Shown here piece after piece: positions 2,536 through 20,896 of a stretch of 64,000 bases of DNA (the first letter of the stretch is position 1; the number at the start of each line of letters is the position of its first letter). Source of the stretch: Myxococcota bacterium (GTDB taxonomy: Bacteria; Myxococcota_A; UBA9160; UBA6930). The notes under the pieces are model-generated. The model saw nothing but the letters and a program-made list of their open reading frames with translations, was not told where the DNA came from and ran no database searches. The DNA lies in NCBI GenBank assembly GCA_965223415.1, contig OZ245002.1, forward strand, positions 544,001 to 608,000. Direction: 5' to 3'. The position numbers and the translations under genes were made by a program.

Positions 2536-3600
2536 ATGACACTCGAACCCGCCGAACACAGCGCCGCGGGCCTGGACACGGCCTGGGCCGGCCTCGCCGC
2601 TCCGGGTAGCTGGTTCACCGGCGCCGAGCGCGTCGGGATCGCCCGCGAGGCACGCGCCGCCAGGGCCTGCGGGCTTTGCGCCGAGCGCAAGGCGGCGCTC
2701 TCGCCCTACGCGGTCGGCGGCGAGCATGCCTCCCCCGTCGTCGATGCGGTGCATCGGATCACCAGCGACCCGGGGCGGCTCAGCCAGAAGTGGTACGACG
2801 AGACGCTGACGGCGGGGCTCAGCGCCGAGCAGGTGGTCGAGATCACGGGAGTCGTCGGCGTCGTCACCGTGGCCGATACGCTGGCGCGAGCCCTGGGCCA
2901 GCCACTGCGCGAGCTACCTGTGCCCTCCGCCGGTGAGCCCGGCCGCACGAAGGTGCCCGGCGCCGTCGTGGCCGGGGGCTGGGTTCCGATGGTGGCCGTC
3001 GACCGTGCCGAGGGCATGGTCGGGATGGTCTACGAGCAGATCGGCCAGGCCGCGGGCTTCGTCTTCAACGTGGTGCGCGCCCTGACCTCGGTGCCCGAGG
3101 CGATGCAGGGCTTCTTCAGCGCCTTCGGGCCGAACTACCGCACCCACGGCCCGGTCGGCCCCGGCGGCCTCGACCGCCCGCAGGTCGAGCTGCTGGCGTC
3201 CTCCACCTCGGCGATCAACGACTGCTTCTATTGAACGGTCTCCCATGCATCGCTGCTCCGTGCGAGCGGCCAGCAGACCGGGACCGAGATCGACGTGCGG
3301 ATCGCGACGGGCCGGGCGACGAGCGTCGACGGCGGCGTGCCCCACGGCGAGGTGCTGCGCTGCTTCGCCGCGGCCGTGCTGGGCGACGGGGACGGGCTCG
3401 ACGAAGCCCGCGCGGCCTGCGTCGAGGCGGTGGGCGCGAGCGCGACCGTCCAGGCCGCCTCCATCATCGCGAGCTTCGACGGGATCAACCGCGTCGCCGA
3501 CGCCACCGGAATCCGCCTCGATGCGGAGACCGCCCAGGGGATGGGCGTGGGCATCACCGAGGAGCTCGAGCTCGGCGAGCTGGCCGCGGCCCGGGCTTGA
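2536..3600 (+). CDS. Alkylhydroperoxidase (AhpD/CMD-like) selenoprotein; UGA at 3232-3234 read as selenocysteine (354 aa, U233)
   Basis: Read-through gives RPQVELLASSTSAINDCFY-U-TVSH, matching the AhpD ELxAxxxSxxNxCxYCxxxH motif; the frame stays open to TGA at 3598-3600; SECIS-like hairpin 3' of the UGA; selD in window. Confidence 0.85.
3236..3280 (+). promoter_or_regulatory. Putative bacterial SECIS element
   Basis: Lower stem CGGTCT(3236-3241)/AGACCG(3275-3280); upper stem GCTGCTC(3252-3258)/GAGCGGC(3264-3270); loop CGTGC with G at loop position 2, starting after a 24-nt gap from the UGA. Confidence 0.7.
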
Positions 3601-3601
3601 G

Positions 3602-4765
3602 CTACTCCCAGGCGATCCCGAAGCGCTTCACGTAGGCGCCGAAGCGCTCCTTCACGCCGGCGACGGAGAGGCCGTACTCCTCGAGGCCGTAGTCGTGACT
3701 GCCGTGGCGGCCCTTGGGATGGCTCTCCACCCGGGCGCGCATGGCCGCCTCGGCCCGGGGCTCGAGGGCGAGGCCGAAGTGGTCATAGATGCGCCCGGCA
3801 CAGGCGAGCCCGTCGGCAACGAAGTCGTCGTGGGTCACGTCCACGAAGCGGGCCGGGTCCAGGGCGTCCCGAGCGGCGAGGCCGCGCTCGAGGGAGGTCG
3901 CGTACCAGTCCATGACCACCGGGCCGAGCTCGGCCTTCTCCGCCCCCTCGCGGGTCGCCATCAGCGTATGGGTCATGCTGCAGATGGAGGCCACGGCGAG
4001 GAGTGGCGTGCGATGGCTCCAGACGATCGAGACGTCGGGGAAGGTGTCCACCAACGCGTCGATGCCCCACATGTGGGCCGGCGCCTTGAGCAGCCAGCGC
4101 TCGCCGGGCCGCTGCCAGTCGAGGAGCTGGAGGATCTTCTTCTGGTAGGCGTACATGCCGCGCAGATCGCGCTCCCGCAGCCAGCTGCCGTAGGGCTCCA
4201 TCATGCACTCGACGCCCATCTGCACGCCGGACAGGGCGTAGGCGTGGACCAGAACGCACTCCTCCGGCGTGTCCGCGCTCGTGTAGTGGATCTTGGTGAA
4301 CGCCGGGTTGACCTCGCGCCCCTTCGCGTAGTGGGCCTCGATCGCGTCGCGCCGGGGGTCGGGCGCGCCTCGGCGCTCCGGCGAGAAGCCGGGGAGCGGA
4401 TCCGGGAACTGAGTCTCCCACAGCCGGAGCGGGCGGGCGGCCGGATCCTCGCCCAGCAGGTTGAAGAGTGCCGAGGTGCCGGAGCGCGGGAGGCCGGTGA
4501 GCACCATGGGACGGGGCACCGGCCGCTCGAGCACCTCCGGGTGTTGCTTCCAGGCATCCTCCAGACGCAGCCGCGTCGAGAGGAGGTTCACCAGCCGGCG
4601 CTGGTTCCGCTTGCGACCCTTCTCGGTGTAGGGGTGGCCCTCGTAGGTGGCGATCAGGGCTCGAAGGCCGTCGCGGAAGTCCGGGTCGCCGAAGTCCGCG
4701 AGGCCCGTGGCCTCGCGCGCCGCGGCCAGCAGCGCTTCCTCGTCCAGGGCGTAGGGATCACCCAC
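3602..4765 (-). CDS. Sulfotransferase family protein
   Basis: PAPS-binding GLPRSGTS, PEEC, RWLLKAPAH; GTG start overlapping the upstream stop. Confidence 0.85.
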   Translation of the reverse strand: MGDPYALDEEALLAAAREATGLADFGDPDFRDGLRALIATYEGHPYTEKGRKRNQRRLVNLLSTRLRLEDAWKQHPEVLERPVPRPMVLTGLPRSGTSALFNLLGEDPAARPLRLWETQFPDPLPGFSPERRGAPDPRRDAIEAHYAKGREVNPAFTKIHYTSADTPEECVLVHAYALSGVQMGVECMMEPYGSWLRERDLRGMYAYQKKILQLLDWQRPGERWLLKAPAHMWGIDALVDTFPDVSIVWSHRTPLLAVASICSMTHTLMATREGAEKAELGPVVMDWYATSLERGLAARDALDPARFVDVTHDDFVADGLACAGRIYDHFGLALEPRAEAAMRARVESHPKGRHGSHDYGLEEYGLSVAGVKERFGAYVKRFGIAWE

Positions 4766-5888
4766 GGGCGAGCTCCTCGCGGAGGTCGGCGAGGGCAACC
4801 AGCCGACAGCTGGGCTCCGGATGGGACTCGGCGCGGATCCAGCGCCAGCACATGGTGCCCTCGACGTGGCCACAGGGATCGAGCCAGTTGTCGCAGCCGG
4901 GATCCTCGTGGGCCACCACCACCCGGACCGACCCGTCGGACCGCGTGACCGCCGTGCCCTTGTTCAGGTGGATGTCGTGGTAGCGGTAGTCGAGGGACTC
5001 GAGCCAGTAGTTCGCGAGCTGGAAGTTCCAGTAGTCGCAGACCGGCGGGGTGGCCTCGATGACGAGGGCTTCACCCGGTCGGATGCGAAAGGCGCTGTGG
5101 TAGTAGGCGATGTTCGGATCGCCGCCGGCGGCGAAGGCCTTCTCGTGGGGGAAGCGCGGGAGCTGGTTCACGTGGGCCTGGAAGCCGTCGGACCAGTCCT
5201 TGAACAGCGTCGAGCAGCCCATCACGAAGCGGGCGGCGCCCTGCAGCATGCGGTCGAGGCGCGCGGGCTCGAGGGGCCGCGGCGTGGAGGGCCCGTCGAT
5301 GCGCTCGATCTCCACACGCGCCAGATCCTCTTCCCGATGGTGCACGCGGGTCTGGCGAATCTGGATCATGCGGGTCTCGGGCTTCATGGGCAGCCAGTTG
5401 ACGGCTTCGGCGGGCCGCTCCGCGGCGACCAGGATCTCGAAGCTGCCATCCGGCTCGAGGGCCAGGTCCTTGGCCTCGAGGTAGCCGGTCGTGTCCAGGC
5501 TCCCGGTCGCGCCGTAGTTGCCCGCCTGGGTGCCGAAGCCCAGATAGTGCACCGTCCCGCGGGTGCCGGTGATCCGGTAGGTGTAGGCACCGTTTACCGG
5601 CGCGTTCAGGTAGACGTTGTCCGGGTTGTCCATGCCCATCTTGATCGTGGGCCCCGTCGTCTGCTGGAAGGCCGGCGCCTGGGCGTCCGACGCCTCGACG
5701 AAGGTGTCGAGCGCCGCCCGGGTGAGCCGCGACAGGTAGCGCCAGCCCTCGGCGCGAACCAGCGGATCGTCCGGCGTGTCCCCGGCCAACACCGCACCCC
5801 CGGCTGCCTTCAACGTGTCACAGAACTCCTCCCAGCTCCGTCCGTCGACGACGCGCTGGAGGGCCTCCCGCTCCTTTTCTCGAGCCAT
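4758..5888 (-). CDS. DUF1214 domain-containing protein
   Basis: RAEGWRYLSRL, KMGMDNPDNVY, YWNFQLANYWLESLDY, HEDPGCDNWLD; typical partner of the adjacent sulfotransferase. Confidence 0.75.
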   Translation of the reverse strand: MAREKEREALQRVVDGRSWEEFCDTLKAAGGAVLAGDTPDDPLVRAEGWRYLSRLTRAALDTFVEASDAQAPAFQQTTGPTIKMGMDNPDNVYLNAPVNGAYTYRITGTRGTVHYLGFGTQAGNYGATGSLDTTGYLEAKDLALEPDGSFEILVAAERPAEAVNWLPMKPETRMIQIRQTRVHHREEDLARVEIERIDGPSTPRPLEPARLDRMLQGAARFVMGCSTLFKDWSDGFQAHVNQLPRFPHEKAFAAGGDPNIAYYHSAFRIRPGEALVIEATPPVCDYWNFQLANYWLESLDYRYHDIHLNKGTAVTRSDGSVRVVVAHEDPGCDNWLDPCGHVEGTMCWRWIRAESHPEPSCRLVALADLREELARG

Positions 5889-17035: not shown

Positions 17036-18583
17036 TCAGTCGGACTCGAGGCCCGGCAGGAGCACCGATCGGTGTCGGTCCATCTCCTCGGCCATGAGCC
17101 GGTGCCCGAAGGCGGTGAGGTGCACCCGGTCCCACCACAAGAACCCCTCCGCGCGGCGGGCGACCAGCGCGGCGTGCAGGTCGAGCACCGGCACCCCGTG
17201 GCGCGCGCCGACGGCGCGCAGCACCTCGTGACGCTCGCGAAGGCCCGCCAGGCTGCGCTCGCTGCGGGCCTCGATCGTGTTGGGCTCGAGCACGAGCACG
17301 GTGCGGATGTCGCGGGCGCGATTGAAGACGACGAGCGCCTCCAGGGCCTGCTCCATGGCCTCCGGGTCGCGATCGTTGTTGCCGAGGTTCACGACCACCA
17401 GCTCGGGGGCCCAGGGGCTCCAGGTCTCGGTCCAGAGCGGCAGGATCTGGGGAGCGGTGAAGGCGGGGATGCCCGTGTTGATGCACTCCACCCGCGTCCC
17501 CGCCGCCGCGTCGGCGCTCCATCGCTGCTCGAGGTGGTGCACCCAGGTGTCCTCGGGCGTCGGCGCGCCGGAGCCCCAGGTCTGGGAGCTGCCGAGGAAG
17601 ACCACCCGGCGCACGCCGGTTGGCGCGGGCTCCAGGGGGTGATCGCGCGCGAGCCGCGGAACGATCTCTCCCTCGTACTCGATGAAGTTCGCGTAGCCGG
17701 CGAAGTCCGGCGCGGCCGGGTGCAGCTTGCCCAGGTAGATCCACTCCACGCCGAGGACCAGCGCGGCGACGGCCGTCACCACGAGGTTCGTCAGCAGGAG
17801 GACGGCGTCGCTGCGGATCTCGCCGCGTTGCCGCGCCCGCCGGGAGCCGCGCCAGGCCAACGCGCCGACGCCGGCCACCAGGACGAGCGCGACGCCGCCG
17901 ACCGCCGCCGCACCGCGCCGGTTCGCGAACCGCTCCTCGACCGCGGTCCCGTCGGCCAGGACGACGCGCAGGTCGTCGACCCAGGCCTTGTCGCCGGCCG
18001 TGCTGCGTAGGGCCAGGCGAACGGGAGGGTCGAACTCGCCTCCGCAGTGGCCGAGTTCCTGGCCATCGAGGGCCGCGTGGCTGCCCCGCCAGCGAAGCCG
18101 ATGCCAGCCGGCGTCGAGCTGCCCCGCTTGCGTGCCGGGCAGGCCCCGGATGCGCTCGATGGCGCCGCCCGCGGCGACCCGCAGACAACCCCCGGGAAGA
18201 CCGGGGCTGCGGCTGAACCGGAGCGCGTCGAAGCCCCGCTGGTCGTCGCCGAGCAGTACGCTGAAGGTCCCCTCTTCCGGGAGGCGGAAGCGCAGCTCCA
18301 GCTCCGCCGGCGCGACGGGGCGTCGCAGGCGGAGCTCGTGGTGGCCGTGCCAGACCCCGAGATCGAGGCGCTCGCGAAACAGCGCCGTGCGCGTGGTCAG
18401 GAACGAGACGGAGCCGAGGATGCCGCGTGCGAGCCCGACCTTGCCGCTCTCCCAGCGACCGTTCGCGTGCAGGGTGTTGCCGAGCTGGAGCCAGGTGCGG
18501 GAGAGCAGGCTTGCGGCCAGCAGCGCCAGGAGCCCGTTCGCGATCCACAACCCGGCGCGCCCGCCACGAGCGGGCTCAGCCAC
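17036..18583 (-). CDS. Membrane-anchored SGNH/GDSL hydrolase family protein
   Basis: FLGSSQTWG (block I), NLGNND (block III), DRVH (block V); TM segments; GTG start overlaps the selD stop. Confidence 0.7.
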   Translation of the reverse strand: MAEPARGGRAGLWIANGLLALLAASLLSRTWLQLGNTLHANGRWESGKVGLARGILGSVSFLTTRTALFRERLDLGVWHGHHELRLRRPVAPAELELRFRLPEEGTFSVLLGDDQRGFDALRFSRSPGLPGGCLRVAAGGAIERIRGLPGTQAGQLDAGWHRLRWRGSHAALDGQELGHCGGEFDPPVRLALRSTAGDKAWVDDLRVVLADGTAVEERFANRRGAAAVGGVALVLVAGVGALAWRGSRRARQRGEIRSDAVLLLTNLVVTAVAALVLGVEWIYLGKLHPAAPDFAGYANFIEYEGEIVPRLARDHPLEPAPTGVRRVVFLGSSQTWGSGAPTPEDTWVHHLEQRWSADAAAGTRVECINTGIPAFTAPQILPLWTETWSPWAPELVVVNLGNNDRDPEAMEQALEALVVFNRARDIRTVLVLEPNTIEARSERSLAGLRERHEVLRAVGARHGVPVLDLHAALVARRAEGFLWWDRVHLTAFGHRLMAEEMDRHRSVLLPGLESD

Positions 18584-20795
18584 CGCGGGCTGCCACGGCG
18601 AAGCGGGCGCCGTCACCCCGGGCGGGCTCGACGCTTCCGATGCGGCGCGCGCCCTCGTCGCCGGCTGCGTGCAAGGCGGCCAGGGCCTCGTCGGCGTCAC
18701 CCGCGGGCACGGCGAGCAGCAAGCCCCCGGAGGTCTGGGGGTCGAAGAGCAGCTCCGCCTCGGGCCGTCCCTTGGCGCGCGCGTCCCACGCCAGGCCGCG
18801 CCGGCCTTCGGCGTTCTGCTCGTGGAAGCTGCTGCGCACACCGGCGGCCAGCAGCGCGGTCGCGCCGGGCAGCGCGGGCAGTGCGTCGACGTCGACCGTC
18901 GCCGCCTGCTTGCCCGCGTCGAGCATCTCGGCCAGGTGTCCCGCGAGGCCGAAGCCCGACACGTCGGTGGAGGAGCGGGCGAAGCGCAGCGCGACCTCGG
19001 CCGCCGCTGCGTTGGAGCGCACCATGTGGCGGAGCGCCGCCACGAGCCACGGGCCGCGGGCGCGGCCTTGCATGTCCGCGGCGAGGACCACGCCGGTGCC
19101 GAGTGGTGCGGTCAGGAGCAGCGCGTCGCCGGGCCGGGCCGTGGACAGGGGAAGCGGCCCCGGCCCGCTGGCATCGCCGGTGACCGACAGGGCCACGAAG
19201 AGCTCGGGCCCCTGGGTCGAGTGGCCGCCGACCAGGCTCACGCCCAGCGGATCGAGCGCGGCGCGCAGGCCCGACAGGACCTGGAAGAGGGTCTCCTCGG
19301 CCCGGTCCGCGTCCTCTTCGGGAACCGTCACCAGGGCGAGGGCGTGGCGGGGCGTGCCGCCCTTCGCCTGCACGTCGCTCACCGCGTTGACGGCCGCCAC
19401 CCGGCCGACCCACCACGGATCGTCGGTGAAGGCGCGGAAGCCGTCAACGGTGGCCAGCACCACGTCGCCGGCGGGCGTACGCAGGGCGGCCGCGTCGTCG
19501 GGTGCGTCGAGGCCGACCACCACCCGCTCGTCCGACGGGGCGGGCGCGAGGCGGGCCAGGGCCCTCGCAAGAGGGCTCGCGCCGACCTTCGCCGCGCATC
19601 CTCCGCAGGGCATGTCCTCCATTCCCATCTCCTCGGGCGTCGGGAACGGCGCCGCGGGCGCGCCCTCGGGACCGAGCACCTGGAAGCGCTCCATGAAGCG
19701 GCGATCGATGCGGTCCTTCCATCGCCACACCCAGGGGCCCGAGAAGGCGAAGCCCCACTTCCCGCCCAGGGCGCGCCCGCCCCCCAGGTTGAGGAGCGCG
19801 AGGAAATCGCGCTGGGGCCGGTGGGTGCGGAGCGGCCGGCCCTGCAGGGCCGCGCGCAGGTTCGCATCGAGGGTCGGGCCCGCGCGCACGGCGTGGACGC
19901 CCGCCTTCGGAACCCACGGGTGGTCGACGAAGGAGGCGCAGTCTCCGGCGGCGAAGAGCGCGTCCTCGCCTTCGACCCGGAGGTCCGACGTCACCCGAAG
20001 GAAGCCGGCCGCATCCTTCGGGAGGTGCGAGGCCGCGAGGAGCGGCACGGGCGCTGCTCCGGTGGCCCAGACCACGAGCTCCGCCGGGAGGACCTGGCCG
20101 TCCTCGAGTCGCACGCCGTCGGCCTGCACGGCGGAGACGCGAGCGCCGGTGCGCAGCTCGATACCACGAGCCACCGCCTCCTGCTCGGCACGTCGCCGCA
20201 GGCGAGCCGAGGAGCCCGGCAGCAGCGGATCGTCACTCAGGAGCTGGACCGCGGGCTCGAGCCCGGCGGCGCGGCAGCGCGCGTCCAGCGAGAAGGCCAG
20301 CTCGGTGCCCGCGGCGCCGCCACCGACGATCAGCACCCGCGGCCGGCCGACGGCGCGGAGGCGGCCCAGGACGGCGTCGACGCGGCCGACGAAGTCGGCG
20401 ATCGGGCGGGTGGCGAGGGCGTGCTCGCGGACACCGGGAAGATCGGCGCCCCGCACCGTGCTGCCCACGTCCAGGCTCGCCACGTCGTAGCGGATGGGCG
20501 CGCGGCCCTCGAGCGCGATGGAACGGGTGGCGGGGTCGATCCGCGTCGCCGCTGCGAGGATCACCCGGGCCCGGGCGCGCCGGGCCAGGGGGACGACGTC
20601 GATCTCCGCTTCGGCGGCGCCGTAGTCGCCGGCGACAACGCCGGGAACCATGCCGGAGTAGAGCGCGACCGGCCGGTCGAGCACGACGCTGAGCCGCACG
20701 TCGGGAAGCGGGTCCATCATCCAGCGACGCAGGACCTGGACGTGGGCGTGGCCGCCGCCGACCAGCATGAGGTCGGCACGGGGCGTAGCGTTCAT
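18576..20795 (-). CDS. selD: Selenide, water dikinase fused to an N-terminal FAD/NAD(P)-dependent oxidoreductase domain
   Basis: N-terminal LVGGGHAH, VGGGAAG, FAAGDC; SelD part CGGCAAKV, DDAA, NAVSDV, GGHS, TDVSGFGLAGH, DPQTSGGLL. Confidence 0.93.
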   Translation of the reverse strand: MNATPRADLMLVGGGHAHVQVLRRWMMDPLPDVRLSVVLDRPVALYSGMVPGVVAGDYGAAEAEIDVVPLARRARARVILAAATRIDPATRSIALEGRAPIRYDVASLDVGSTVRGADLPGVREHALATRPIADFVGRVDAVLGRLRAVGRPRVLIVGGGAAGTELAFSLDARCRAAGLEPAVQLLSDDPLLPGSSARLRRRAEQEAVARGIELRTGARVSAVQADGVRLEDGQVLPAELVVWATGAAPVPLLAASHLPKDAAGFLRVTSDLRVEGEDALFAAGDCASFVDHPWVPKAGVHAVRAGPTLDANLRAALQGRPLRTHRPQRDFLALLNLGGGRALGGKWGFAFSGPWVWRWKDRIDRRFMERFQVLGPEGAPAAPFPTPEEMGMEDMPCGGCAAKVGASPLARALARLAPAPSDERVVVGLDAPDDAAALRTPAGDVVLATVDGFRAFTDDPWWVGRVAAVNAVSDVQAKGGTPRHALALVTVPEEDADRAEETLFQVLSGLRAALDPLGVSLVGGHSTQGPELFVALSVTGDASGPGPLPLSTARPGDALLLTAPLGTGVVLAADMQGRARGPWLVAALRHMVRSNAAAAEVALRFARSSTDVSGFGLAGHLAEMLDAGKQAATVDVDALPALPGATALLAAGVRSSFHEQNAEGRRGLAWDARAKGRPEAELLFDPQTSGGLLLAVPAGDADEALAALHAAGDEGARRIGSVEPARGDGARFAVAARGG

Positions 20796-20896
20796 CGAAG
20801 GCGGCCGTCCTCGGGCATCGGGCAAGGGGTAGCGCATTGGACGCCCCGCGAGGGTCGAGTAGCCTGGGCGCCCCCCTTGGAGGAGCATTCGCGCCG

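Follow-up and report, generated by a model that had tools for sequence, protein, structure and literature searches.

The 64,000-nucleotide stretch of DNA analysed here (hereafter the window) carries at positions 2536..3600 of its forward strand what, judged from its sequence, is almost certainly one genuine selenoprotein gene, an ordinary member of the AhpD-related family NF041238 with selenocysteine (Sec) predicted at the in-frame UGA of positions 3232-3234. The gene comprises 354 codons (2536-3597) and a terminal TGA (3598-3600). The NCBIfam model NF041238.1 ('AhpD_rel_CFYUT, alkylhydroperoxidase-related (seleno)protein'), an equivalog-level model named for its CFYUT motif, matches the read-through protein at 370.9 bits (cut-off 175; E 7.3e-111), with protein residues 9-349 covering profile positions 5-355 of 357. 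In a six-frame search of the genome with the same model, the gene scores 361.9 bits with one TGA inside the match. The only Pfam match of the read-through protein at E<=1 is PF02627 (CMD), at residues 209-246 with 26.1 bits. The initial annotation had proposed a 354-aa selenoprotein with an N-terminal CGLC and a CFYU redox centre, and the family match, the fixed UGA, the hairpin and the sel genes of the genome all agree with this proposal. The gene belongs to an already-known family, and the selenoprotein call is correct but ordinary.

Reading frame and conservation of the in-frame UGA

The frame opening at ATG 2536 runs to ...SAINDCFY, meets TGA at 3232-3234 and continues as TVSHASLLRASG..., with the next stop only at TGA 3598-3600 (codon 355), and the product after read-through has 354 residues with U at position 233. 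The 101-aa open reading frame at 3295..3600 is in frame and forms the tail of the 2536 frame; the initial annotation had likewise described an ORF at 2536..3234 stopping at SAINDCFY-TGA with the frame open through 3295..3600, and the frame reads as described. The G+C contents of the three codon positions are 0.73/0.55/0.91 upstream of the UGA and 0.76/0.55/0.94 downstream of it (window G+C 72%), indicating that the same coding frame goes on past the UGA. Other open reading frames overlap the gene on the minus strand (2706..3017, 2914..3345 and 3228..3557) and in the +2 frame (3245..4948); none matches a Pfam family, and they were set aside as high-G+C artefacts.

Ordinary ORF calling reads the locus as two genes, one for 232 aa (2536..3234) and a separate one for 101 aa from GTG 3295, and the public protein of the locus, P0002, is indeed the 232-aa form. 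However, the 101-aa piece on its own has no Pfam family, neither the family profile nor the Cys homologues break at the junction, and conservation is among the highest in residues 234-253, encoded between the TGA and the GTG, leaving two separate genes with a negligible probability. P0002 is instead a truncation of a single gene, in line with the earlier suggestion that gene callers mis-split it. The practical outcome is an annotation fix, the public 232-residue entry being without a third of the sequence, the histidine of the active site included.

In the protein database, 90 of 93 matches end exactly at C-x-Y (81 CFY, 7 CVY, 1 CLY and 1 CAY), including P0002. Full-length Cys forms account for two of the 93 (P0066, 367 aa; P0067, 383 aa), and P0094 is unrelated. 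The CFYC of P0066 and P0067 aligns to CFYU, and 40-42% identity continues to the C-terminus; these are full-length homologues with Cys aligned to codon 233, of the kind that the initial annotation had suggested looking for. At the DNA level, a six-frame NF041238 search of 61 related genomes found exactly one TGA at the site in 49/49 matches above the cut-off. The same search of a 301-genome sample of the phylum found exactly one TGA in 51 of 52 matches, the sole match without it being a fragment (profile positions 1-157) that ends before the site. A metagenome scan seeded with P0066 for Cys-form DNA returned 55 loci, 49 of which cover the site, and exactly one TGA is present in each of these 49 metagenomic relatives. 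In addition, a search of genome contigs with the read-through protein gave 65 pattern matches, none of which was confirmed.

Within the phylum sample, the family occurs in 39 of the 301 genomes, all from the window's own class, and was not found in sampled genomes outside that class. No Cys form was seen among the 51 full-length copies in these 39 genomes.

Taken by itself, the window shows just a family domain interrupted by a stop codon, and a Cys-type AhpD-related gene could also show such a stop through recent inactivation by mutation or through a sequencing error; that paralogues do decay is shown by another copy in this genome, which is truncated at its 5' end. However, the same TGA stands at the same codon in the three sets of relatives given above (49/49, 51/52 and 49/49), the 121 codons downstream of it are conserved with H270, R292, F314, R319, G325 and I326 invariant, and the codon-position G+C is unchanged after it. 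A nonsense pseudogene is thus extremely improbable. The initial annotation had named, as the outcome that would speak against its own reading, homologues that end at CFY with TAA or TAG stops and show no similarity beyond; what is found is a fixed TGA with similarity continuing past it.

Two observations concern the family more broadly. The NCBI record MDJ0866249.1 (P0046), from a Myxococcota metagenome-assembled genome, is named 'alkylhydroperoxidase-related (seleno)protein' and yet is stored as a 245-aa truncation ending in CFY, indicating that the curated name is used even where Sec read-through is not applied. Among close orthologues, the motif reads C-Y-Y-U in L044 (1749-1829) and U-A-V-S-H in L047 (3001-4041), showing that both the F and the T of 'CFYUT' can be replaced.

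The downstream hairpin and the selenocysteine machinery

The predicted apical hairpin of a bacterial SECIS element (bSECIS) lies at 3252..3270 on the plus strand, with stem strands GCUGCUC (3252-3258) and GAGCGGC (3264-3270) enclosing the loop CGUGC (3259-3263). The stem begins 17 nt and the loop 24 nt from the UGA, and by itself the hairpin has a folding energy of -11.3 kcal/mol (z -1.86). The limits for bSECIS elements set out in a section of a 2026 review are a loop of 3-9 nt, an upper stem of 4-16 bp, G in the first two loop positions, a distance of 16-37 nt from UGA to loop and a minimum free energy of at most -7.5 kcal/mol (PMC13188914). The hairpin lies inside all of them, with a 5-nt loop carrying G at position 2, a 7-bp stem, a 24-nt distance and -11.3 kcal/mol.

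Relatives share the consensus GCUGCUC-CGKGN-GAGCRGC downstream of the UGA, and the 7-bp hairpin at 3252-3270 is the sole structure predicted by RNAalifold from 23 sequences. Covariation was evaluated in sets of 34 and of 83 sequences (the latter with 75 distinct); in the larger set, stem pairing is standard in 98.3% of 525 cells, falling to 23-55% when the 3' partners are slid by 1-3 columns, and the observed covariation score was reached by 0/500 shuffles. The outer pair is found as GC (43), AU (14), GU (8), CG (3) or unpaired (7), and since both of its letters are third codon positions the covariation is partly synonymous. At the second pair (CG 66, AU 5, GC 1, UA 1, unpaired 2), compensation changes two amino acids together, Leu to Met/Val with Gly to Ile/Ala. 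The hairpin lies within conserved coding sequence (LLR-x-S), so that part of its conservation is protein-driven.

The initial annotation had described a two-stem hairpin starting 1 nt after the UGA with a CGTGC loop after a gap of 24 nt. The loop stands at that distance on a conserved apical stem, and the single-sequence fold of the region does give nested stems. However, that fold pairs the UGA itself and puts the start of its next stem 2 nt, not 1, past the UGA, and it is nothing out of the ordinary for DNA of 72% G+C, 25 of 200 shuffles folding just as stably (z -1.12). The lower stem, although present in the single-sequence minimum-energy fold, is absent from the RNAalifold consensus of the 23 sequences and was rejected as a conserved feature. 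An Rfam scan of 3100-3450 found no SECIS family and only two chance matches (E 2.4 and 8), a miss that says little, as bacterial SECIS elements are diverse.

The genome (5.83 Mb, one contig) encodes tRNA-Sec, SelA, SelB and SelD, all above their family cut-offs. tRNA-Sec (selC) lies at 4487769-4487863 on the minus strand with 69.4 bits (cut-off 47), and ARAGORN likewise calls it SeC with anticodon TCA. selA occupies 1917410-1918735 on the minus strand (497 bits, cut-off 267.9), and selB starts from 1703912 on the plus strand (267.2 bits, cut-off 242.25). The initial annotation had made the absence of selA, selB and selC a point against itself, and all three are found. The SelD domain lies inside the window at 18702-19610 on the minus strand (G000:C1:562702-563610; TIGR00476, 252.9 bits, cut-off 125). 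The Sec genes are scattered rather than gathered in a sel operon, with selD at 0.56 Mb, selB at 1.70 Mb, selA at 1.92 Mb and selC at 4.49 Mb.

SelD forms the C-terminal half of a 770-codon open reading frame (18576..20888, minus strand), where it follows, as a fusion, a pyridine-nucleotide-disulphide oxidoreductase domain at the N-terminus; the Pfam domains of this frame are Pyr_redox_2 (39-328), AIRS (464-571) and AIRS_C (585-758). The initial annotation had placed SelD at 18576..20795, and its presence stands, the minus strand and the oxidoreductase fusion having gone unstated there. By its predicted domains, this open reading frame encodes the selenium-donor enzyme of the Sec pathway as an Ndh-SelD fusion, a type to which a figure legend of the GOS selenoproteome paper (PMC2398784) refers. 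It contains no in-frame stop, indicating a Cys-type or other non-Sec SelD.

Together these elements suggest how the gene would be decoded. A ribosome reaching UGA 3232-3234 would be served by SelB with Sec-tRNA(Sec), bound to the 7-bp hairpin 17 nt further on; selenocysteine would then enter at residue 233, and translation would go on to TGA 3598. Sec insertion in bacteria competes with release factor 2, and no experimental work on the NF041238 family was found in the literature searched; the UGA might accordingly be read by near-cognate Cys or Trp insertion, or serve mostly for termination at 232 aa with Sec as a minor, selenium-dependent route. However, the genome keeps a full and costly Sec machinery, a covarying hairpin stands at the distance that SelB-dependent decoding needs, and a product of 232 aa would break off within the active-site helix, without H237 and half of the domain. 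Such decoding is therefore very unlikely, if somewhat less so than a pseudogene or a pair of genes, and Sec at codon 233 is the reading followed below.

Redox motifs, modelled structure and gene neighbourhood

The redox motif C230-F-Y232-U233-T-V-S-H237 is encoded at 3223..3246 (+). It lines up column by column with 21 other family members, and in this alignment of 22 proteins E218, C230, F231, Y232, U233, T234 and H237 are invariant. Glu218 (3187..3189, +) lies 12 residues before Cys230, where the M. tuberculosis AhpD relay has Glu118, and TIGR00777 aligns protein residues 208-248 to profile positions 108-148. The AhpD proton relay, as described in part of PMC3141380, consists of Glu118/Cys130/His132/Cys133/His137 in M. 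tuberculosis AhpD and of Glu36/Cys48/Tyr50/Cys51/His55 in PA0269. Its pattern, Glu-x11-Cys-x-[His/Tyr]-Cys-x3-His, is matched by E218, C230, Y232, U233 (Sec for Cys) and H237. The UGA thus falls on the second Cys of the AhpD motif with a conserved His after it, as had been proposed from the sequence at the outset. The N-terminal motif C45-G-L-C48 is encoded at 2668..2679 (+), at a helix junction of an N-terminal AhpD-like domain. C45, L47 and C48 are invariant in 20/20 N-terminal domains, and CxLC is also present in the Cys forms P0066 and P0067.

An AlphaFold model of the whole protein has a pLDDT of 91.5 and a pTM of 0.92, with both domains above pLDDT 90. For the C-terminal half, Foldseek returns 2prr and 6k40 with probability 1.00 (TM 0.76, E ~3e-3), 2pfx matches with Z 12.9, and 6k40 also matches by sequence (E 5.9e-08). 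The whole model gave no Foldseek match in the PDB at E<=0.001, its AhpD-core matches still having probability 1.00. Modelled alone, the N-terminal 140 residues reach a pLDDT of 93.8, and the top 7 matches among 48,161 chains are all AhpD/CMD proteins, with Z 8.1-5.7 (modest for a helical domain) against 4.9 for the next, unrelated chain. C45-x-L-C48 is modelled between helices 29-44 and 46-53, and CFYU is likewise placed at a helix junction in the whole model. An internal duplication is not claimed from sequence, hhalign of residues 1-140 against 141-354 being too weak (probability 10.3%, E 0.0031); the N-terminal AhpD-like fold is a matter of the structural comparison.

As predicted, the product would consist of two AhpD/CMD-like helical domains, the C-terminal one carrying a complete AhpD-type relay with selenium in place of the second cysteine. 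C230 and U233 would then cycle between the selenol/thiol and selenenylsulfide states, reducing peroxide or an oxidised partner protein. By analogy, the invariant N-terminal C45-x-L-C48 may represent a second redox centre, possibly with a relay role.

In the window's first 5888 positions, the gene has as neighbours an FAD-dependent aromatic-ring hydroxylase (147-1919, +) and a VOC/glyoxalase-family gene upstream, the latter on the same strand and ending 23 nt before start codon 2536, and downstream a convergent sulfotransferase gene ending 1 nt after the stop, a DUF1214 protein and an alcohol-dehydrogenase-like gene. In the five neighbouring open reading frames scanned, no ahpC or peroxiredoxin domain was found. 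In a tblastn set of 33 loci, the neighbourhood is partly kept at four of the five loci of the lower-scoring NF041238 subclade, which are presumed to be orthologous (L044, L046, L047 and L048). These four come from three genomes of the same genus and one of another genus in the family, and they retain the sulfotransferase in 4/4 cases, two of them together with both the VOC and the DUF1214 genes. Around the more distant family copies, the neighbourhood is not retained, and as the recurrence is too shallow, no functional link is argued from it.

Other copies of the family vary in number and arrangement. The second NF041238 copy of the same genome (L018, G000:C1:5146743-5147630, minus strand) has both the TGA and the hairpin and matches the profile from position 57, and the first ~57 residues with the CxLC are encoded in no frame of its locus; this copy is perhaps a paralogue that has lost its 5' end, perhaps a pseudogene. 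In some relatives, two NF041238 genes are direct neighbours on opposite strands, divergent in L031 (G020:C12:603855-606096) and convergent in G201 (G201:C80:61124-64167), and up to three copies are found per genome (G020, G047 and G265).

Comparison with known systems

At the motif level, the window protein is AhpD-like by sequence, and it lies outside the AhpD family proper. The five-residue relay spacing is identical to that of M. tuberculosis AhpD (TIGR00777; PDB 1gu9/1knc) and of the PA0269 type, and Tyr at the third relay position (Y232) is common to PA0269 and the window protein. The all-helical fold is also common to it and M. tuberculosis AhpD (1gu9, Z 8.0). However, the window protein has Sec for the second Cys, is double the length and carries an extra N-terminal AhpD-like domain with CxLC. 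Its score of 19.4 bits against TIGR00777 is far below the cut-off of 191.95, and it is not a member of that family.

A comparison for the C-terminal half is the 'AhpD-like 1' type (TIGR01926/COG2128), which is listed as a separate selenoprotein family in a part of PMC13188914. The C-terminal half (~145-340) has the same two-repeat AhpD-core fold as this type and as 2prr, 6k40, 2pfx and 3c1l, with the CxxU/CxxC motif at the same place. However, proteins of the TIGR01926 type are single-domain and ~190 aa long, and the window protein matches the model only over residues 149-327, at 67.2 bits against a cut-off of 81.8, which places it outside this family too.

For the whole model, the best structural match is human Sestrin2 (PDB 5cuf), with Z 15.9, an rmsd of 3.4 A and 228 aligned residues over model positions 3-326, although the structure-search tool itself notes that helical models often reach Z values of about 14. 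Human Sestrin2 consists of two AhpD-like helical lobes in one chain, and the window protein is modelled with a similar arrangement. However, identity is 9%, and the window protein has no Sestrin (PA26) Pfam match at E<=1. In the models, the Sestrin2 resemblance is thus an architectural likeness only, with any homology beyond the shared AhpD superfamily putative. A bolder reading, which is regarded as rather unlikely, is a self-contained, Sestrin-like two-lobed selenoenzyme in which C45-x-L-C48 would re-reduce the C230-U233 selenenylsulfide, with no need for a partner of the AhpD/AhpC type. In this reading, the enzyme also appears to depend obligately on selenium in the window's class, and the neighbourhood with its sulfotransferase and VOC genes might point to a particular small molecule as substrate more than to a general defence against peroxides.

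The initial annotation had seen novelty in a long architecture. The NF041238 profile is itself 357 positions long, and the protein covers positions 5-355 of it, so this length is the family norm. A section of the 2026 review, the sole match of a full-text literature search for 'NF041238', identifies the family as the 'hypothetical protein 1' that the Sargasso Sea selenoproteome had yielded (PMC13188914). The part of the 2005 paper that deals with hypothetical protein 1 introduces it as a new family of selenoproteins, in which CXXU is conserved, a SECIS is predicted and Cys homologues occur (PMC1088965). Since the family was described in 2005 and is curated by NCBI, the window gene is not novel, and the scientific gain is small, with the family, the CxxU motif and the SECIS already reported in 2005 and curated as NF041238. 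The new detail obtained here is that both halves model as AhpD-like folds in a two-lobed, Sestrin2-like arrangement and that the N-terminal CxLC is invariant. For the biochemist, modest leads are the Sec-fixed state across the sampled class, the two-lobed Sestrin2-like shape and the second conserved CxxC.

Within NF041238, the window copy falls in a lower-scoring subclade (~362-371 bits versus 440-490 in the main clade), whose motif reads SSTSA-x-NDCFYU as compared with GRVSALNECFYU in the main clade. No defining difference separates the window gene from NF041238 and hypothetical protein 1, with which it has in common the full-length match, a length of ~357 aa, the CFYU-T motif, the Sec position, the CxxU and the stem-loop downstream of the UGA.
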